DNA of 64,000 bases from NCBI GenBank assembly GCA_000092065.1, contig CP000582.1. The stretch is one strand, 5' to 3'. The notes below the pieces were generated by a model. It was not told the origin of the DNA. It worked only from the letters and a program-made list of their open reading frames with translations, and did not search any database. Below are positions 1 to 58,640 of the stretch, piece after piece (positions within the stretch are counted from its first letter, which is position 1; each line of letters starts with the position of its first letter). The DNA is from Ostreococcus lucimarinus (Eukaryota). The position numbers and the translations under genes are program-made.

Positions 1-1090
1 TTTTCTTCGGATCAGTCTCACGTGCCATCGCAATAACGGCGGAACGACATTTTGATCTCCGACATGATGATCTAGGGGTCGCGCGTAAGATATTGTGCGT
101 TGGTTGCCTACTTGCCAAAGAGTTCATCGCCGTCAATTATATGCCGCTTGAGATTTCTTTGTGGTAGGAGAAGTTGCCTGCGATTGCGAATGGGCGCATT
201 TCTAGAGTCAGTAATCGTGTGCATGTGCACACATCATCGCGGAGGAACGATAGTCCGCAATTTGCGTCGGCTTTGGTGCCTGGCGCACCGCACGTATGGA
301 GATAACGTTGACGAAGTGAAATAGATAAGGAAATAGTGATCCTCAGCGGATGACGCGACGCGCGTTTGCGGCACTCTGCAAACACACCGATCGATGGGCG
401 TACCTCAAGATCACACTGCCCGACGTTCCGGTCCGAACTCGAAGCGTTCAATTGCGGCGGACGTGAAAGCTTCACACTGAGGGTTTGTTCGGCCGACGTT
501 GGCGCGCGGCTCCATTTTTTCGGTTTTCATACTAGATTTAACCCACAGGATAGCGGAAACTCAAAACGCTCGAGTTGGATTGTTCATTGTGAAAAACATA
601 CCGCGTTACGTAAAAAAGAATTGGTTTCCCCTGTGATTTGATGATGACTACCGAGCTATCTGTAAACACGAAAGTAACTCGCCGTGCTTTCACTCCGCCC
701 AAGTCGCACCCAGCCGCGGTTGAAGCGCAAGTGGCACTGAGAGATATGCAGCTAAACTGTGTAGGCTCGATGAACTCGCGGTTGTCGGCCAATTTCAAAA
801 GTATCTGTCGACTCATCGAAGCTACAGCTAGTACGGGCCGCTCTTATTTCGTACGTATTCCCTTCACTCTCTGATAATTCTCAAGTCTTCGACGTAGACT
901 CATCCGCTCGATGCGGTTAGTGTATGCAAGGCTTCAAACGAACGTGCAAAGTCGAATTGGCACCGCTGCTCGCCCATAGCAAAGTGGTCAAACGCATTAA
1001 ATGGCTGGATAAGCGGACCGTCCACCAAGCTGAGTTCTCTACCGGGACGTGTTACCGACGTTAGTACTTTGCGCGATAGCACGTACGAAG

Positions 1091-2520
1091 CAGAATTTGT
1101 CCGCACGACACCGAGTTCTAATACTTATTCTCATACTGCGATCTTACCGGGAGTTCGAGGCGTACATCGCCCTAAATCGTATGGAGACAACTTCTCTGTG
1201 AACAGGAAAGGATATCCAATCTGGCCTTAAGTCTCCTGTAATATTGCAATTTTCATTGTACAAACTAGCTCTGCCGTCGTTCTAATCACTAAATTGAAGT
1301 TCACGCTTGCAGCTTCGTGTAAAAGTCGATTTCACGTTCGTAGGTATTTGCGTATTCGGATTCTCAAAGGTAGGCCCCTTGCCAGAGAGCCCCGTTATCT
1401 CTTGAATATTCGCCCAGTCGCCGCGCGTAAAGTTGTAGGTTTGCATCAAATTCAGGACGTCTGGTATACCATCTAGTTCTTTACCCCCTCGAGCTTGACT
1501 AAAAAGCGGACGAGTGAGCAACCGTTTTGTCAAAGAAGCGTACCAGAGGCAAAACTCAAGTTGAGTGCTGCAGCTCCTACCACTTGATCGAAAATGTTGA
1601 TACAACTCTGATAACAGCCGCTGCGATTTTGACTTTGACGACAACTTCCCCAAGAGACTTGGGAATCGATGAGTGTGGCGTTCAGCCTGACCAAATGTTT
1701 CTCTTGAGCCTCTGACGGCAGAGGTTGGCAGGACACATGAAACTATGTTCGCAGGAGGCATCATGGTCCAGTTTTGTGTCTTGTTTATTGTCGTCGCAAA
1801 CACATCTCCTTCTGCTACACGTGACGATGCCGCAGCAACGTGCACAATTCTTTGCAACTCGTTTGTACTGTCTCGCGGGCGCATACACGCATAGTTTTCT
1901 TGAACGAACAGAGGGATCATGTCTGAGTGCTGGAAAACCAGATTAAGCCTCTCATCGAGTGTTTTTAATGGGCTTGGACGAAAAAGAACATCTATTGCTT
2001 GAAAAACACTTGTGGCGACATCTTTTTTCGAAATTTCATTCCTTCCGTGATGCTTCGAGCTCATGCCCCATAGTTGTAGCTGGTTGATACTGGATCGAAG
2101 GTCATTGTTGTTTGCTTCTATGAGAGCATCAACTGCGTCGCTATCAACATCCAAGCGTTGTGAGGCTACAATTTGATTCAAGTACTTTCGGAGCTGGAGC
2201 TTATTTGGCCGTTGGAAAGGTAAATCGACACAATAGTTTGCAAGAGTCTTTAGTTTTTGTGAATATCGGTCGTTGCAGATGCATATGATGGGAATGCGCG
2301 TGTGTTTGATGACTTCTATCAACTCCGAGATACCACCCCGATCGCCACCAGCCATACCATCTACTTCATCCATGATCAGTGCAGTCTTTGTTGATCGCAA
2401 ACCATCAATACCGATGTTACGATTAGTTACAAACTCTCGAACAGTACTCGCCAATGTTCCCGCTATCCCATCACTTACTGCTCCAGTCTTACCTCTTGAA
2501 TCGCTTGCGTTTACGTTCAA
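1091..2520. repeat. Copy A of a 1.43-kb segmental duplication, identical to 3383..4812
   Basis: ORF-track pairs at a constant +2292 offset have identical translations (1294/3586, 1527/3819, 1530/3822, 1682/3974, 1725/4017, 2273/4565). Direct reading confirms identity from cagaatttgtccgcacgac through gcgtttacgttca. Divergence is sharp at both ends. Confidence 0.85.
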
Positions 2521-3141
2521 CGACGTGCACACGTCGTCGCCGAACAAATACCCCGCCCCTCGAGGGGAAAGCCCCCAGCCGGAGACGTCCTCGGGGTCGC
2601 TCCAAAGCAAATCGCACATCGCGCCTTCGTGCGGCACCTCTTGTTTACGATCGATCGTTCGAATCTGATCGATCGTCGTGATGCTCGGGGACAACCCCCC
2701 GTGCACGCAAAATATCTTGTTATCTATGAGCGCAGACAACGAAAGGTAATCGAACACATCCGTGCAATATCGCCACACGTTGACGCTCCCGTATTTGCGC
2801 AAACACTCGTCGTAAAACCCGTACACCTGCGTGATCTGTCGACACTCGTGATTCCCCCGAATGAGATACATTCGATCCGGGTACCTCACCTTCAGCGCCA
2901 GGAGCAACAAAAACGTCTCCACGCTGTAAAACCCGCGATCGACGAAGTCCCCCATGAACAAATAGTTTGTATCCGGGCAGTCGCCGCCGACTTTAAACAG
3001 TTCCAACAAATCGTAAAACTGCCCGTGAATGTCCCCGCATATCGTCATCGTTTGCTCGTTAATCCACCGCACGCGATCGAAATCGTCGCTCGAAAAGTCA
3101 CGCAGCGACGCCTTCGCGTCCCGCATCGCCGAACACATCAA
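1282..3141 (-). pseudogene. Chimeric in-frame ORF of 619 aa: a truncated PP2A/PP4-type catalytic core (about residues 25-230) fused to the RFC1 large-subunit region downstream of the P-loop, from the duplicated copy. Probably a non-functional chimera.
   Basis: The N-terminal 205 aa carry the PPP motifs GDIHGQ, GDFVDRG, GNHE, HGG and SPRGAGY but lack the C-terminal His and tail. The junction at 2520/2521 continues in-frame into [12 protein letters not shown], identical to residues 88-498 of the ORF at 3574..5070. The fragment lacks the Walker A motif GAPGIGKTT. Confidence 0.55.
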
Positions 3142-3350
3142 TGTTGAGCGAAATATCTAACGCGGTGACGCTGTGCGTGAGCGCACCGCTGGATATGTAC
3201 GTCACGCCTGTTTGGCCGATGGCGTGGACGGTGTCTAGGGTGACGTTACCCGACGCCTCGGTGTCGACTCTGCCGTCGATGAGACGCACGGCGGCGGTCA
3301 TGTCCTCCACGGACATGTTGTCGAGCATTAAACGAGTGACGCTGCCCGTC
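3098..3350 (-). pseudogene. C-terminal fragment, about 85 aa, of quinolinate phosphoribosyltransferase (NadC/QPRT). Truncated at its 5' side at the duplication boundary.
   Basis: [64 protein letters not shown] matches the conserved QPRT C-terminus (MLDN...EVSGN.TL......tGVD.IS.GALTHS...LD.S). No upstream QPRT sequence is present. It overlaps the PP2A-fragment reading frame by about 40 nt. Confidence 0.6.
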
Positions 3351-3382
3351 GGGACGTTCGGGTCGTGCAGAATTTGTTCGTG

Positions 3383-4812
3383 CAGAATTTGTCCGCACGA
3401 CACCGAGTTCTAATACTTATTCTCATACTGCGATCTTACCGGGAGTTCGAGGCGTACATCGCCCTAAATCGTATGGAGACAACTTCTCTGTGAACAGGAA
3501 AGGATATCCAATCTGGCCTTAAGTCTCCTGTAATATTGCAATTTTCATTGTACAAACTAGCTCTGCCGTCGTTCTAATCACTAAATTGAAGTTCACGCTT
3601 GCAGCTTCGTGTAAAAGTCGATTTCACGTTCGTAGGTATTTGCGTATTCGGATTCTCAAAGGTAGGCCCCTTGCCAGAGAGCCCCGTTATCTCTTGAATA
3701 TTCGCCCAGTCGCCGCGCGTAAAGTTGTAGGTTTGCATCAAATTCAGGACGTCTGGTATACCATCTAGTTCTTTACCCCCTCGAGCTTGACTAAAAAGCG
3801 GACGAGTGAGCAACCGTTTTGTCAAAGAAGCGTACCAGAGGCAAAACTCAAGTTGAGTGCTGCAGCTCCTACCACTTGATCGAAAATGTTGATACAACTC
3901 TGATAACAGCCGCTGCGATTTTGACTTTGACGACAACTTCCCCAAGAGACTTGGGAATCGATGAGTGTGGCGTTCAGCCTGACCAAATGTTTCTCTTGAG
4001 CCTCTGACGGCAGAGGTTGGCAGGACACATGAAACTATGTTCGCAGGAGGCATCATGGTCCAGTTTTGTGTCTTGTTTATTGTCGTCGCAAACACATCTC
4101 CTTCTGCTACACGTGACGATGCCGCAGCAACGTGCACAATTCTTTGCAACTCGTTTGTACTGTCTCGCGGGCGCATACACGCATAGTTTTCTTGAACGAA
4201 CAGAGGGATCATGTCTGAGTGCTGGAAAACCAGATTAAGCCTCTCATCGAGTGTTTTTAATGGGCTTGGACGAAAAAGAACATCTATTGCTTGAAAAACA
4301 CTTGTGGCGACATCTTTTTTCGAAATTTCATTCCTTCCGTGATGCTTCGAGCTCATGCCCCATAGTTGTAGCTGGTTGATACTGGATCGAAGGTCATTGT
4401 TGTTTGCTTCTATGAGAGCATCAACTGCGTCGCTATCAACATCCAAGCGTTGTGAGGCTACAATTTGATTCAAGTACTTTCGGAGCTGGAGCTTATTTGG
4501 CCGTTGGAAAGGTAAATCGACACAATAGTTTGCAAGAGTCTTTAGTTTTTGTGAATATCGGTCGTTGCAGATGCATATGATGGGAATGCGCGTGTGTTTG
4601 ATGACTTCTATCAACTCCGAGATACCACCCCGATCGCCACCAGCCATACCATCTACTTCATCCATGATCAGTGCAGTCTTTGTTGATCGCAAACCATCAA
4701 TACCGATGTTACGATTAGTTACAAACTCTCGAACAGTACTCGCCAATGTTCCCGCTATCCCATCACTTACTGCTCCAGTCTTACCTCTTGAATCGCTTGC
4801 GTTTACGTTCAT
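3383..4812. repeat. Copy B of the 1.43-kb segmental duplication. It lies inside the intact RFC1-like gene and includes about 190 bp of its 3' flank.
   Basis: Same as copy A. Copy B is embedded in a complete 498-aa RFC1-like ORF, so it is the likely parental copy. Confidence 0.85.
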
Positions 4813-5070
4813 CGTTTGAAATCCAAGTTCTCGGCAAATAAGGATGGCACTCGTGGTCTTGCCAATTCCAGGCGCTCCACTTATGAGTATTGCTTTTCGG
4901 GTCGACACTTTTGAAGCTTTTCCTGTGGCTTGATTCCCTGGCCAGTTTGAGAGCCAAGTTCGGAGAGTAGCGATGGCGCTACTATTTCCGACCAAGTCTG
5001 CGAGTACTCTCGGAGAAAATTTGTCAGTCCACAAATTTGCAGAATTTTCTATACCATAGTAGGCATGCAT
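3574..5070 (-). CDS. RFC1: Replication factor C large subunit (RFC1-like) AAA+ clamp-loader module. It has no BRCT region, which may be absent or on an unseen upstream exon.
   Basis: 498-aa ORF with LWTDKFSPRV...ILISGAPGIGKTT (Walker A), [15 protein letters not shown] (Walker B/sensor) and ICICNDR. The C-terminal domain resembles RFC1. An in-frame TAG lies 63 nt upstream of the ATG. Confidence 0.8.
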   Translation of the reverse strand: MHAYYGIENSANLWTDKFSPRVLADLVGNSSAIATLRTWLSNWPGNQATGKASKVSTRKAILISGAPGIGKTTSAILICRELGFQTMNVNASDSRGKTGAVSDGIAGTLASTVREFVTNRNIGIDGLRSTKTALIMDEVDGMAGGDRGGISELIEVIKHTRIPIICICNDRYSQKLKTLANYCVDLPFQRPNKLQLRKYLNQIVASQRLDVDSDAVDALIEANNNDLRSSINQLQLWGMSSKHHGRNEISKKDVATSVFQAIDVLFRPSPLKTLDERLNLVFQHSDMIPLFVQENYACMRPRDSTNELQRIVHVAAASSRVAEGDVFATTINKTQNWTMMPPANIVSCVLPTSAVRGSRETFGQAERHTHRFPSLLGKLSSKSKSQRLLSELYQHFRSSGRSCSTQLEFCLWYASLTKRLLTRPLFSQARGGKELDGIPDVLNLMQTYNFTRGDWANIQEITGLSGKGPTFENPNTQIPTNVKSTFTRSCKRELQFSD

Positions 5071-55997: not shown

Positions 55998-56099
55998 TTC
56001 AGATTGATTACACTGTAGAACAGAATACTGTAGCATCGGCGCTCAAAGATATGTCGTACAGAGACGCTCAAAGGAGAACACGCCCGTCCGCGTCCTCGT

Positions 56100-56230
56100 T
56101 TACTCCTCCGCATCCGCATCCGCATCCGCATCCTCCTCCTCCTCCTCTTCCTCCTCTTTCTCCTCTTCCTCCTCTTTCTTTTCCTCCTCTTTCTCTTTCT
56201 TCTTGCCGCACTCCGATTCCTCGTCCTCCT
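56100..56230. repeat. Microsatellite: (CATCCG)n followed by a (CTC/TTC)n pyrimidine tract
   Basis: catccgcatccgcatccgcatcctcctcctcctcctcttcctcctctttctcctcttcc... read directly. Confidence 0.8.
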
Positions 56231-56984
56231 CGTCGCATTCGTCGTCGTCGCCGCCGCCGCCGCTCGCCCGGCCGATGCGCGCGCGCGACCCACCACTTCG
56301 TCGCATGTACCGCGCCCGCGATTTATCCACCGCCGCCTTGCGATCGTACAACAACGAGCGTCGCGCGCCCGGCGTCGGCCTCGCGACGTCCGCGTCGTCC
56401 GCGTCCGTCGCCCGCGCCTCCGTCACCGCCTCCGCGTTCGCCAGCGCGATCGCGTTCGCGAGCGACGACGCGCCCGTGAGCGCGACGCACGCGACGCCGG
56501 CCGTCGTGGCGAGCGCGAACAGGCGCGCGCGCGCGCGGCGTCCGCGCGAATGGTGTTCGCGAGGTCGAGACATTCTTCGACGATTCGCGTCGCTTCGGCG
56601 CGCGTTCGACCGCGCGGTTCGTTCGGCGCGCGCCGCGAGACGTCGAGCGTCCCGGGTCGTCGAGCGCGGGGCGTCGAGCGCGCGCCGCGCGTCGGCGTGC
56701 GGTCGCGCGTCGCGTCGATCCGAGGCGTCCGCGGTGTGGTCGCCGCGCGGAAAAATTTATATATCGCCCCTTTAGAGAGTACCTACACACATGACGAGTC
56801 ATGAACCGTGGATATATACGTATTTTACACCGTTTAGTTCTAAAAGTTTGATTCTACAACATCTACGAGAGGTAGTTCCTAATGCTAATTTGCTCGCCTT
56901 TGCTTGCCTTGCGTTTGTGTTCATCGACCATCTTCTCGTGCAGAGATGATTTCAAGTGCGATTAAATGATTGGATGACGTGTTA

Positions 56985-58301
56985 TCAAAAGGACCCGTGT
57001 CGGGCGACGATTTCTGATACTGATGAACCATTAAGTATGTCTTGACGTATACTGCTCTCAGAAAATACTCGCTTTAAAGCTTCTTCAATCACGATATTTC
57101 CAAACCGTCTTGGGATAATCAGTGTTCCTTCTTGATCACTGAAAATCAAATCTCCCGGACAGCACGAGACGCCATCCAAGCTAATACACTGATTTGTTGA
57201 CTCTACTGTAGCAACACCTCTCACATCAGAGCAGGTTGAACCGGCTGCGTAGACGGGAAAGTTCGAACATTTCACTTCCACTGTATCGCGTGTAAAACCA
57301 TTCGTGACGAAACCGGCGGCTCCCCTCGTTATGGCAATGTGAGCATTAAGATCGCCAAAATATGCTCGTCCCTTCATCGGATTTTCTACTACGATAACGT
57401 CACCGAAGCCGACGTAGTTGTATGATTTTAGAGCACCATAGATTCCCCTGAGATCTTCACTTTCACGAAGAGGCCTTAACTTAAGTGTGCAAGCACGACC
57501 GAAGACCTTGCTCAGTGCGCCTTGTGGTTTTAAGCCGAAGACCACTCGTCCACTTACGCCCATATCATCCAGCGTGTCTGATAAAATGGCACTGGTGAGA
57601 TGTAGTTTGGCGCACCTCAAGCGAGATAGACCAGCGACGCGGTGCGCTAAAGCGATATTGTTTGCAAGAGCGAAGTCAACTTCGTAGTTGATATCAACTG
57701 CTTCTTCTGGCGTAACATGCAGCATGTGTGGTTTGTTCCCTATCCTTCGCCGAGTCAGCTTCGCCGCATCTCTCGTAATGTTGTACAGCCCCATGGTCTC
57801 CACGGTAGTCGTTGGCAAATCAACTGAGTTGGGAATATTTTGGATATCATAGCTCGGCCCTGCCTTTGTCCACGTATACAGTTTATCATCGCGAACAGTG
57901 CACGCGGAGTCATAAACACCGGACATCACGCTCTCGACACCTTTCTTAATCGTTTCTGGATGTATGAACGGGCTTGTGCACAGCGCCTGCACATAGATTT
58001 CGGCATCGAATCGCTCAACTTCGTTCATGAACAGAGTGTTACCGTCCGTCTTGTTCGTGGCCAACGCCTCGTCCCGCTTTAGGAAAACTAACTTTGGATT
58101 ATCGCTCGCAAGAAATTCCGCCACCTTGAAAACATCATCGGACTCAGAGTCCAAGACAACTTTGTCAATAAAAGGACACTCGAAGAGCAACTTTTCCAAA
58201 GTGTGCAGGAAGAGTGGTTTGGAATCCAGCAGTTTCGTGTTCTTGCTCTCTACGCGACTCGATGTACCTTTGCACGGCACAAACGCAACGATCCGCGCCA
58301 T
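56985..58301 (-). CDS. Fusion: N-acylneuraminate/CMP-sugar cytidylyltransferase (CTP_transf_3) N-domain plus RraA-like (class II pyruvate aldolase/MenG-like) C-domain. It lies in a low-GC island.
   Basis: N-terminus RIVAFVPCKGTSSRVESKNTKLL..KPLFLHTLE...VVLDSESDD matches the CMP-NeuAc/KDO synthetase family. C-terminus VGFGDVIVVEN...GDLNAHIAITRGAAGFVTNGFTRD...FPVYAAGSTCSDVRG...CPGDLIFSDQEGTLIIP matches RraA/HMG-CHA aldolase. Local GC is about 47% against about 68% in the flanks. Confidence 0.6.
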   Translation of the reverse strand: MARIVAFVPCKGTSSRVESKNTKLLDSKPLFLHTLEKLLFECPFIDKVVLDSESDDVFKVAEFLASDNPKLVFLKRDEALATNKTDGNTLFMNEVERFDAEIYVQALCTSPFIHPETIKKGVESVMSGVYDSACTVRDDKLYTWTKAGPSYDIQNIPNSVDLPTTTVETMGLYNITRDAAKLTRRRIGNKPHMLHVTPEEAVDINYEVDFALANNIALAHRVAGLSRLRCAKLHLTSAILSDTLDDMGVSGRVVFGLKPQGALSKVFGRACTLKLRPLRESEDLRGIYGALKSYNYVGFGDVIVVENPMKGRAYFGDLNAHIAITRGAAGFVTNGFTRDTVEVKCSNFPVYAAGSTCSDVRGVATVESTNQCISLDGVSCCPGDLIFSDQEGTLIIPRRFGNIVIEEALKRVFSESSIRQDILNGSSVSEIVARHGSF

Positions 58302-58640
58302 GAGAACGCAACACGATCGCCGGTGTCTCGAGAACGATCGTTTGAAGCGTCACAGCCGGGATGGGACCGCCCGGAGCGCGCGGCGTGATTAACTCTGGAA
58401 TCAGACGTCGGCGCTCGTGACTTCGAGCCGAAAGCGCGGCGAAGCCGCGAGTGTGGACAGCCGGTTTGGACGTCGGAGAACACATTCGTCGGCCAAAGTT
58501 TTTTTTAAATCGCCACTCGCGCGAATGGCCGCGTGACTCGACGACCGCGTGAACTGCGGTGACATCGCGACCGCGCGGCGCGACGCCCGCGCGCGCGCGC
58601 GACCGCGCGGCGACCGCGACCGCGCGACCGCGCGCGCGCC

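Follow-up and report, generated by a model that had tools for sequence, protein, structure and literature searches.

The closest described counterpart of the gene analysed here is crov266 of Cafeteria roenbergensis virus (CroV), whose product was reported as an N-terminal CMP-NeuAc-synthetase-like cytidylyltransferase followed by a C-terminal 'demethylmenaquinone methyltransferase' domain; its function is a prediction, and it belongs to a predicted Kdo cluster, crov265-267, beside API/KdoPase and KdoPS genes (PMC9614988). Each half of such a protein has structurally described relatives: NeuA and CMP-Kdn synthetases (9t4z, 6ifd, 1qwj) and KdsB/KpsU (1vic, 1h7e) share the fold of the first half, while HMG/CHA aldolase (3noj) and two active RraA-like aldolases/decarboxylases, Yer010c (2c5q) and a Thermus thermophilus protein (1j3l), share that of the second (TM to target 0.65-0.88). 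In E. coli group 2 capsules, kpsF is paired with kpsU. In a 64-kb stretch of Ostreococcus lucimarinus DNA (contig CP000582.1, hereafter the window) a solitary gene encodes both halves as one protein and, compared by published description, has the same architecture as crov266, 'demethylmenaquinone methyltransferase' being the old name of the RraA/MenG family. Kdo genes adjoin crov266, whereas none is adjacent to the window gene. Literature searches returned a mention of 'crov266' only in a 2022 review, and nothing relevant for 'RraA' combined with 'cytidylyltransferase'.

The gene occupies 56985..58301 on the minus strand (ATG start, stop codon at 56985-56987) and encodes 438 residues. An original prediction, made from the sequence alone, had described this ORF as a cytidylyltransferase joined to an RraA-family domain, and Pfam matches both: PF02348 (CTP_transf_3) at residues 6-129 with 43.8 bits (cutoff 22.6) and PF03737 (RraA-like) at residues 238-394 with 83 bits, far above the threshold of 24.5 and covering profile positions 2-151 of 152. 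The ORF is colinear with 16 homologues from end to end without breaks, and we therefore take it, as predicted, to be one intronless gene and not two. The same ORF was found in four run assemblies and six environmental contigs, is identical in loci L108-L111, and is intact in the window and at five further solitary-copy loci (L114-L117, L119). An assembly artefact is ruled out, since environmental contigs of up to 488 kb cross both junctions of the low-GC island in which the gene lies. The reference annotation, XP_001416485.1, is a 133-aa partial model holding only residues 300-432 and needs correction to the 438-aa gene.

Residues 1-216 (57654..58301, minus strand) form a NeuA/KdsB-type cytidylyltransferase domain. 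By phmmer, residues 2-216 match the CMP-Kdn synthetase 9t4z, and Foldseek with an AF2 model of the fusion protein (pLDDT 86.7) matched this domain to 6ifd, 9t4z, 1qwj, 1eyr and 1vic at probability 1.0. The family-invariant residues of this half are K11, G12, S14, R16, K20, N21, R76, Q105, T109, S110, P111, D203 and N205; the K11-N21 set, the N-terminal nucleotide-binding motif, and Q105-P111, the Q-x-TSP motif, align with the same motifs of 9t4z. In sequence the domain is nearer to NeuA, PseF and CMP-Kdn synthetases than to KdsB, and it failed every NCBIfam equivalog cutoff (36.5 bits against 205.7 for PseF and 17.9 against 193 for the KdsB subfamily), so that assignment to Kdo depends on gene context alone. 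What sets the protein apart from NeuA/KdsB-type synthetases is an additional 200-residue domain of catalytic appearance.

This RraA/HMG-CHA-aldolase-like domain spans residues 234-438 (56988..57602, minus strand). Its sequence matches are 3k4i (E=1e-19), 5x15 and 3noj, with Foldseek TM(target) values of 0.83-0.88, and its nearest structures are 3k4i and RraAS2 (5x15). In the 3noj alignment, G316-D317 (codons at 57351..57356, minus strand) correspond to Gly-101 and Asp-102 of Pseudomonas putida HMG/CHA aldolase, in the pyruvate pocket and metal site, and R338-D339 (57285..57290, minus strand) to the essential Arg-123 and the metal ligand Asp-124; E415 (57057..57059, minus strand) is the probable counterpart of the metal-site Glu-199, a match extrapolated two residues past the end of the printed alignment (residue roles in PMC5065237). 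G316, R338, D339 and E415 are invariant in the family, which has either D or E at position 317. By this alignment the RraA-like half thus keeps the catalytic and metal-binding residue set of a class II pyruvate aldolase, with E415 by extrapolation, and the pyruvate-aldolase likeness originally proposed for it holds at residue level for the four aligned positions. The domain nonetheless scored under the equivalog cutoffs for LigK/PcmE (TIGR02798, 55.1 vs 304.5) and RraA (PRK09372, 33.5 vs 136), and while HMG/CHA aldolase belongs to aromatic catabolism, the fusion carries a cytidylyltransferase and is found in a glycan context.

The architecture, which had been thought new, is widespread in prokaryotes and large viruses; the expectation that it would be absent from characterised enzymes was correct, the family being uncharacterised. 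Homologues colinear with the window protein, 31-55% identical to it, are spread over many bacterial phyla, some archaea and large viruses. A sequence search gave 465 matches, among them homologues with 100% query coverage at 47-60% identity (47-55% for full-length bacterial ones), dozens of 50%-identity clusters match residues 3-438, and the fusion was recovered at 80 prokaryotic and 19 viral loci. Bacterial members from Vibrio vulnificus, Photobacterium damselae, Aliarcobacter butzleri and Stutzerimonas, recorded as 'RraA family protein / cytidylyltransferase domain-containing protein', are colinear over residues 3-438 at 47-55% identity and share both Pfam domains and the invariant residues. 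Across the family alignment the domain order is the same over the full length, and mean column identity is 65% along the whole protein. In bacteria the genes belong to loci for capsule, O-antigen or flagellin glycosylation that also contain Kds genes, whereas the algal sequences form a clade of their own.

The proposed role of the family comes from its gene context. Among 70 prokaryotic loci the recurrent neighbours, all counted on the same strand as the fusion, are KdsD-like (KdsD/KpsF, 33 loci), KdsA (23), GT2 (17), KdsC (12-13), MptE/Maf (12) and TylF (8); the partner proteins clear their NCBIfam cutoffs, KdsA as an equivalog-level Kdo-8-P synthase. Kdo-pathway genes or ulosonic-acid transferases are associated with the fusion at 37 of the 70 loci. 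At the other 33 no Kds gene lies within 8 kb, yet these too are loci for O-antigen or capsule. LPS-less Firmicutes carry KdsD, KdsA, KdsC and the fusion with no other cytidylyltransferase, a Vibrio capsule locus has the order KdsA-KdsD-fusion-polyST-like, and the KdsD-plus-fusion pairing of Gram-negative bacteria resembles the kpsF/kpsU pairing. In two algal relatives (algae B and C, both marine picoeukaryote contigs) the fusion is clustered with KdsA, KdsD and GT29. Given these recurring Kdo-pathway enzymes and surface-glycan transferases, CMP activation of a Kdo-type sugar is the most likely function of the fusion.

The original prediction of an ulosonic-acid pathway therefore stands as far as Kdo-type surface-glycan pathways are concerned, but its compact two-step route fares less well: the sugar is usually supplied by canonical KdsD, KdsA and KdsC encoded beside the fusion, so that the aldolase-like domain is unlikely to be its only source. 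On that proposal the fusion alone would provide a PEP-independent route from pyruvate and an aldose to an ulosonic acid and on to a CMP-activated Kdo-like or novel acid sugar, and the complete conservation of the catalytic and metal-binding residues is what one would expect of it, as is the lack of nearby KdsA, KdsD and KdsC at the 33 prokaryotic loci. A second cytidylyltransferase beside the cluster of alga B is fused to a non-homologous HMGL/DmpG-type lyase fold, which suggests that the pairing of activities was itself selected. Yet KdsA and KdsC share an operon with the fusion at many loci, the LPS-less Firmicutes, in which the whole pathway must be local, have both, CroV has KdoPS and KdoPase next to crov266, and the Gram-negative hosts without local Kds genes mostly have housekeeping ones; we consider the two-step route unlikely. 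At loci with KdsA and KdsC, Kdo can be made without an aldolase, which leaves the role of the RraA-like domain speculative. Replacement of the Kdo-8-P phosphatase KdsC by this domain was rejected, as a KdsC-like gene is in the same operon at 12-13 of the 70 loci and CroV itself encodes a KdoPase. The C-terminal domain of vertebrate CMP-sialic acid synthetase is HAD-like and non-catalytic, and by analogy the RraA-like domain might be an oligomerisation or regulatory module without action on the sugar. RraA-family proteins are trimeric or hexameric and include regulators that bind other proteins, E. coli RraA for example, and the Stutzerimonas locus contains a NeuA-HAD fusion of the vertebrate type; the invariance of the catalytic and metal residues across phyla and the high column identity would, however, be unexpected for a mere scaffold and make such a module very unlikely.

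The window gene contrasts in composition with its surroundings. In 300-nt windows, GC content is 0.40-0.53 over about 56750-58400 and 0.70-0.78 directly to either side, and the fusion ORF has a GC of 0.479 and a GC3 of 0.494, compared with a GC3 of 0.66-0.90 for its neighbours (RAI1, TLC, P4H, RNaseH-exonuclease, bestrophin and trigger factor). The predicted low-GC island is thus present, although it is AT-rich on its 3' side only (56750-56984, GC 0.39; the 5' flank at 58302-58400 has 0.62) and the window has a mean GC of 0.62 and not, as stated, 0.68. Positions 1-5000 of the window form another low-GC stretch. The composition of the island equals that of the alga's own low-GC compartment (0.44-0.50). 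Most of it, 56940..58427 (minus strand), is a 1,490-bp segment shared at 97.4% nucleotide identity with a gene copy in a sister Ostreococcus lineage (L112/L113), the homology ending abruptly on both sides; it includes 126 nt of upstream non-coding DNA (58302..58427, minus strand) that moved with the gene. An AT-rich tail at 56829..56939, inside which all four run assemblies stop (at 56912), has no match in the sister locus, and the distal 79 nt (56750..56828) are 97.5% identical to intergenic DNA of the low-GC compartment of the window's own lineage (L121/L123, 17532-17610). A search for target-site duplications and terminal repeats at the island edges turned up nothing beyond chance matches of CG-rich, low-complexity sequence, and the junctions break cleanly.

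In the sister lineage the gene sits in a KdsD-fusion-GT29 cassette within a uniformly low-GC (44-50%) part of the same chromosome: the proteins flanking the cassette are at least 90% identical to CCE9901 proteins encoded on the 895-kb chromosome to which the window belongs. We rejected the notion that L112, at 48% GC, is Bathycoccus and that the copies reflect transfer between genera, its flanking proteins being 97.7-99.4% identical to those of O. lucimarinus CCE9901 on the same chromosome. Loci bearing the cassette and loci with an empty cassette site were both found, while an RAI1-TLC site without the fusion gene was sought in related loci and not found. Synonymous divergence between the solitary and cassette copies (dS 0.037) is 3.5-fold lower than that of six flanking genes (0.119-0.142), which rules out plain vertical divergence and suggests that the two copies split recently. 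Changes in the solitary copy favour G/C by 23 to 6 (p=0.002), and at all 12 of 12 fixed differences in the non-coding stretch the window has G/C where the cassette has A/T; this bias and the composition indicate that the move probably ran from the cassette to the RAI1-TLC site. A parallel may exist on Ostreococcus chromosome 2, whose low-GC candidate mating-type region is reported to gain and lose genes (PMC8557840), the cassette being low-GC as well, although the 895-kb chromosome is not equated here with chromosome 2. Unlike MT+ and MT- haplotypes, moreover, the flanks of L113 and L121 align at 92-94%, and we do not place the cassette inside the mating-type locus proper.

These observations support a recent insertion, the part of the predicted horizontal acquisition that stands by virtue of the 1,490-bp homology and the low dS, but not the bacterial or viral donor proposed with it. 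A sharp compositional island and a family that is mostly prokaryotic, with members in large viruses, would fit direct acquisition from a bacterial or viral source. The closest relatives, nevertheless, are algal: three algal sequences form a clade with 100% bootstrap, apart from the main viral group (nine sequences at 35-38% identity, itself a 100% clade), the best other viral contig reaches 51%, and the best non-algal sequence, from a prokaryote, about 54-55%. A single-sequence scan of IMG/VR found no close viral relatives and a profile scan distant viral copies only. With the 97.4%-identical copy placed among Ostreococcus genes on an Ostreococcus chromosome, such a donor is largely refuted and, in our estimation, barely tenable.

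Whether the solitary copy still works is a separate matter, and it shows signs of relaxed constraint. Between the window and L119 the fusion gene has 10 differences, 6 of them non-synonymous, vs 0-1 in RAI1 and P4H, and 38 of the 101 differences over 17.4 kb lie within the 1.7-kb island. Residue 174 is N in the window where all other Ostreococcus copies compared and the aligned family consensus have I, and in one natural population (L118) a 35-nt deletion at a site (57200..57239, minus strand) that is intact in the window shifts the frame. A tblastn search of the 64-kb window found no KdsA, KdsD or GT29, and GT29 is reported missing from the annotated CCE9901 genome, so the solitary copy may serve no pathway. 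That it is a non-functional relic being lost, whatever the family does elsewhere, is a real possibility, if one we would bet slightly against: the ORF remains open in the window and the five further solitary-copy loci, all catalytic residues are kept, and dN/dS relative to the cassette copy stands at 0.30 rather than 1, in estimates based on only 10-22 differences. A canonical CMP-Kdo synthase homologue is also reported in Ostreococcus genomes, which may therefore allow Kdo to be made. With its KdsD-like and GT29 partners lost and constraint relaxed, the link to surface glycans and virus resistance drawn in the original prediction is weakened for this copy.

Taken together, the best explanation, to which we assign a probability of roughly 0.6, joins a Kdo-type CMP-activating two-domain enzyme with relocation of the solitary copy from the cassette. 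The N-terminal domain would, from its conserved gene context, activate a Kdo-type 3-deoxy-2-ulosonic acid with CTP, and the activated sugar would pass to surface glycans through GT29, polysialyltransferase-like or Maf-like transferases. With low confidence, we suggest that the RraA-like domain may catalyse a reversible aldol reaction of the same acid in its open-chain form, with pyruvate and D-arabinose or arabinose-5-phosphate as aldol partners, in which case irreversible CMP activation would pull the equilibrium towards synthesis. The solitary gene would be a fragment of about 1.5-1.7 kb of the three-gene low-GC cassette (KdsD-like, fusion, GT29), copied without its partners into high-GC DNA between TLC and RAI1, where it would since have gained G/C and come under weakened constraint.

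For the family, these results describe a two-domain enzyme spanning dozens of bacterial lineages, some archaea, large viruses and green algae, whose aldolase-like half looks catalytically competent by its residues while complete Kdo pathway genes adjoin it. A bolder joint reading, which we regard as quite unlikely, is that the RraA-like domain truly acts as an aldolase for ulosonic acids, that lyases were fused independently and that the cassette is a mobile glycan cassette. If so, the domain might account for Kdo aldolase activity (on pyruvate and D-arabinose) or might instead be a synthase for another green-algal acid sugar, such as Dha or methylated Kdo; the RraA-like and HMGL-like folds, unrelated pyruvate lyases, would have been joined to this cytidylyltransferase on separate occasions, the irreversible activation by its own CMP-synthetase driving the aldol reaction forward. 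The KdsD-fusion-GT29 cassette would then be a mobile surface-glycan module in 'naked' Ostreococcus, its presence or absence affecting recognition of the cell surface by viruses or mating partners. GT29 is reported absent from the reference Ostreococcus genomes, yet the cassette with its GT29 is polymorphic for presence or absence in the sister lineage, and some 'naked' Ostreococcus may therefore make a Kdo-type surface glycan. The island itself offers a compact and datable case of a gene that probably left a low-GC compartment and was recoded towards G/C, and should help in working out what maintains the two compositional compartments of Mamiellales genomes.

The original prediction, which described a 438-residue ORF joining a cytidylyltransferase to an RraA-like domain within a low-GC island, was correct as an observation. 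The ORF occupies 58301-56985 of the minus strand, opens with an ATG, and carries a CTP_transf_3 domain at residues 6-129 (Pfam, 43.8 bits; cutoff 22.6) and an RraA-like domain at residues 238-394 that clears its HMM threshold (83 bits; cutoff 24.5) with the profile covered almost entirely. The ORF aligns without a break over its full length with 16 homologues (mean column identity 65%), indicating a single intronless gene rather than two merged ones. An AlphaFold2 model of the protein was confident (mean pLDDT 86.7, pTM 0.84), and structure comparison related its first half to CMP-Neu5Ac and CMP-Kdn synthetases and its second half to the RraA-like proteins 3k4i, RraAS2 (5x15) and Yer010c and to HMG/CHA aldolase (3noj). 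The reference annotation missed the fusion: the ORF's 90%-identity cluster includes XP_001416485.1, from the 895,087-bp chromosome of Ostreococcus lucimarinus CCE9901, a 133-aa 'predicted protein, partial' equal to residues 300-432 only.

The architecture had not been recognised from characterised enzymes, but it is common in prokaryotes and large viruses. A word-indexed search with the fusion protein returned 465 matches; most of the 120 listed have both domains at full length (430-435 aa; 47-55% identity) and come from Vibrio, Photobacterium, Aliarcobacter, Pseudoalteromonas, Stutzerimonas, Solidesulfovibrio, Marinitoga and a large number of metagenomes. Several carry the label 'regulator of RNase E activity RraA/CMP-N-acetylneuraminic acid synthetase'. 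Scanning one genome per species yielded 80 prokaryotic loci in Proteobacteria, Firmicutes, Bacteroidota, Acidobacteriota, Planctomycetota, Melainabacteria and two archaea, and HMMER, run exhaustively against 1.84 billion cluster representatives, matched residues 3-438 in dozens of 50%-identity clusters, with each half also existing stand-alone. IMG/VR added 19 loci from viruses, several of whose contigs span 160-256 kb. On one large viral contig (L018, 5638-12672; 256 kb, 34% GC) the neighbours are GDP-mannose 4,6-dehydratase, FkbM methyltransferase, sulfotransferase and GT8 genes and, nearby, a cytidylyltransferase-like/mannose-6-P-isomerase fusion, with no Kds genes in the ten ORFs examined around the fusion. 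We take 'demethylmenaquinone methyltransferase' to be an old name for the RraA/MenG family. A domain so named is joined to a CMP-NeuAc-synthetase-like domain in CroV crov266, described in a 2022 review as part of a predicted Kdo cluster, all functions being predicted, next to crov265 (KdoPase and arabinose-5-P isomerase) and crov267 (Kdo-8-P synthase and methyltransferase) (PMC9614988). Our literature search found no paper characterising a cytidylyltransferase-RraA fusion.

Gene context is the clearest evidence on function. We called ORFs in the 80 prokaryotic loci, clustered the neighbours and counted same-strand genes in the 70 loci with a full-length fusion ORF. A KdsD/KpsF-like isomerase, mostly immediately upstream, was present in 33 of the 70 and KdsA, mostly immediately downstream, in 23, followed by GT2 (17), a KdsC-like phosphatase (13), an MptE/Maf-like protein (12) and a TylF O-methyltransferase (8). 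Representative partners passed the NCBIfam models for Kdo-8-P synthase (equivalog, 362-400 bits; cutoff 314), KpsF/GutQ (218-303 bits; cutoff 203.7) and KdsC (192 bits; cutoff 107). The full set of KdsD, KdsA, KdsC and fusion occurs in seven loci of LPS-less Firmicutes, in six of which no further cytidylyltransferase was found, while KdsD and the fusion alone occur in many Gram-negative loci, a pairing that resembles kpsF and kpsU in E. coli capsule loci. The Vibrio vulnificus order is wza-wzb-wzc, KdsA, KdsD, fusion, a polysialyltransferase-family gene, a flippase and glycosyltransferases. Where Kds genes are missing (33 loci), the neighbourhood is still that of a surface-glycan locus and contains TylF, GT2/GT1, Wzm/Wzt with Wzt_C, and nucleotide-sugar dehydratases. 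The inference that this context supports is that CMP activation of a Kdo-type ulosonic acid is the task of the N-terminal domain. In sequence, however, the domain is nearer to NeuA, PseF and CMP-Kdn synthetases than to KdsB and reaches none of the equivalog cutoffs tested, so the identity of the sugar rests on context. A TylF-type O-methyltransferase often adjoins the fusion (loci L041, L058, L062, L091, L093 and L095-L097; also L002), and 5-O-methyl-Kdo is a known constituent of prasinophyte scales; the TylF neighbours and the methyltransferase domain of crov267 hint at an O-methylated Kdo as the activated sugar.

The RraA-like domain looks catalytic rather than a scaffold, judging by its conserved catalytic and metal-site residues. 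G316, D317, R338 and D339 align with Gly-101, Asp-102, Arg-123 and Asp-124 of Pseudomonas putida HMG/CHA aldolase, in which Gly-101 lines the pyruvate pocket, Arg-123 is essential, as it stabilises the pyruvate enolate, and Asp-124 and Glu-199 supply the acidic metal ligands; of the homologues with these motifs, most are probably class II pyruvate aldolases (PMC5065237). Across the alignment with 16 homologues G316, R338, D339 and E415, the probable equivalent of Glu-199, are invariant, and position 317 is always D or E. The proposal that the two halves form a compact two-step route to an activated ulosonic acid was chemically reasonable, but it is the canonical Kdo pathway that usually provides the sugar: frequent KdsA and KdsC neighbours argue against the RraA-like aldolase as sole sugar source, and KdsC, often present alongside, rules out the domain as its substitute. 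We propose, at low confidence, that the RraA-like half catalyses a reversible aldol reaction of the ulosonic acid in its open-chain form, with the CMP-activation step drawing the reaction forward. A real functional coupling of the two activities is favoured by a marine picoeukaryote (alga B) in which, beside the Kdo cluster, a low-GC 644-aa gene (L004, 14359-16219) fuses a second cytidylyltransferase (CTP_transf_3) to an HMGL-like, DmpG-type metal-dependent lyase fold not homologous to RraA.

The island itself stands, with GC of 0.40-0.53 across about 56750-58400 against 0.70-0.78 just outside, although the AT-rich flank lies on the 3' side only and the window mean is 0.62, not 0.68. GC3 of the fusion gene is 0.49 against 0.66-0.90 in six neighbouring genes, and the fusion gene lies among housekeeping genes of eukaryotic type (RAI1/Dxo, a TLC-domain protein, a prolyl hydroxylase with a ShK domain, Nipped-B and plastid trigger factor). 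RAI1 and the fusion are convergent; the gap of about 1 kb between them (56000-56750; 58-77% GC) is CG-rich and of low complexity, with a purine-rich repeat, and holds a 157-aa ORF (56100-56573, minus strand), also called by some metagenome annotations, whose N-terminal segment is hydrophobic and whose E/K/D tail is acidic. Each of four independent public-run assemblies with the whole ORF (L108-L111) ends at base 56912, 73 nt beyond the stop codon, which could be a transcript 3' end or a repeat edge. A second low-GC stretch (1-5070; 46-50% GC), perhaps at the margin of the low-GC compartment of this chromosome, encodes on the minus strand an RFC1-like protein (3574-5070; AAA and RFC1 C-terminal domains) and an ORF (1282-3141) joining a PP1-type Metallophos N-terminus to an RFC1 C-terminal 413 aa, 411 of them identical to the former; the latter looks like a chimera that arose when about 1.25 kb was recently duplicated in tandem.

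The low GC of the island had suggested a bacterial or viral donor; it is instead that of the alga's own low-GC compartment. When 83 family members were placed in a neighbour-joining tree with 200 bootstraps, the window protein and two other algal sequences formed one clade with 100% support and the main viral group (nine sequences) formed a separate 100% clade. The best prokaryotic match reached 54% identity, so none of the sequences sampled points to a recent donor among bacteria or viruses. The two algal proteins (from alga B and a second marine picoeukaryote, alga C) are 58-60% identical to the window protein and 70% to each other, and in both algae the fusion is clustered with KdsA, KdsD and GT29, the cluster of alga B being a low-GC island itself. 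A natural variant, P0131, differs from the window protein at 11 amino acids and is flanked by a KdsD-like and a GT29 gene in DNA of uniformly 44-50% GC, among genes for BiP, GPAT, ERD2, glucokinase and SNF2. BiP, GPAT and ERD2 are 97.7-99.4% identical to CCE9901-type proteins of the same 895-kb chromosome or metagenomic equivalents, with which the remaining surroundings share 90%-identity clusters. This cassette, in an O. 'lucimarinus'-type lineage (L112, 8669-12320; L113, 8286-11937), places a 350-aa KdsD-like and a 278-aa GT29 gene on either side of the fusion. Homology between window and cassette locus is limited to 56940-58427 (1,490 bp, 97.4%), starting about 126-128 nt before the ATG and ending 45 nt beyond the stop. 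Over its outermost 79 nt the island is 97.5% identical to an intergenic low-GC-compartment stretch of the window's own lineage, which again points to that compartment as the source.

In the common genome type BiP lies directly beside glucokinase with no cassette (56 bp, against 4,236 bp in L113), and this glucokinase is also on a 487,933-bp contig bearing the solitary copy. The gene upstream of the cassette is GPAT in L112 and BiP in L113, so the site is rearrangement-prone. The solitary order P4H-TLC-fusion-RAI1 is no assembly artefact, as environmental contigs cross both junctions. Simple co-divergence of the two copies does not fit: dS between the lineages is 0.119-0.142 in six genes flanking the cassette site and 0.037 in the fusion gene, so the copies split well after the flanks diverged, which implies that the gene moved between lineages or haplotypes that are closely related. 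In Ostreococcus the low-GC portion of chromosome 2 is a candidate mating-type region that genes are reported to enter and leave, CCE9901 being assigned to MT- (PMC8557840). The 895-kb chromosome may be chromosome 2. The flanks of L113 and of the window-lineage locus L121 align with each other at 92-94%, unlike MT+ and MT- haplotypes. Among 29 fixed differences, 23 have G/C in the solitary and A/T in the cassette copy and 6 the reverse (binomial p=0.002), and in 126 upstream non-coding bases the ratio is 12 to 0. Since the composition of the cassette copy matches its surroundings, the bias is best read as the relocated solitary copy drifting towards the G/C-rich composition of its new surroundings.

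Evidence on whether the solitary copy is still functional is mixed. The ORF is intact in the window and five other solitary-copy loci, all catalytic residues are kept in the window protein, and dN/dS between solitary and cassette copies is 0.30. However, a search within the 64-kb window found no KdsA, KdsD or GT29, and published CAZyme counts report no GT29 in Ostreococcus reference genomes, CCE9901 included. Between the window and another solitary-copy locus (L119), 10 differences (6 non-synonymous) fall within the fusion gene, against 0-1 in RAI1 and P4H; 38 of 101 differences over 17.4 kb sit in the 1.7-kb island, and one natural population carries a 35-nt frameshifting deletion.

Taken together, the island is of interest on three counts: a widespread, putatively bifunctional enzyme with a function predicted from sequence and gene context, an unreported polymorphism for a KdsD-fusion-GT29 cassette where GT29 is reported to be absent from the genus, and a datable case of a gene compositionally recoded after a move between genomic compartments.
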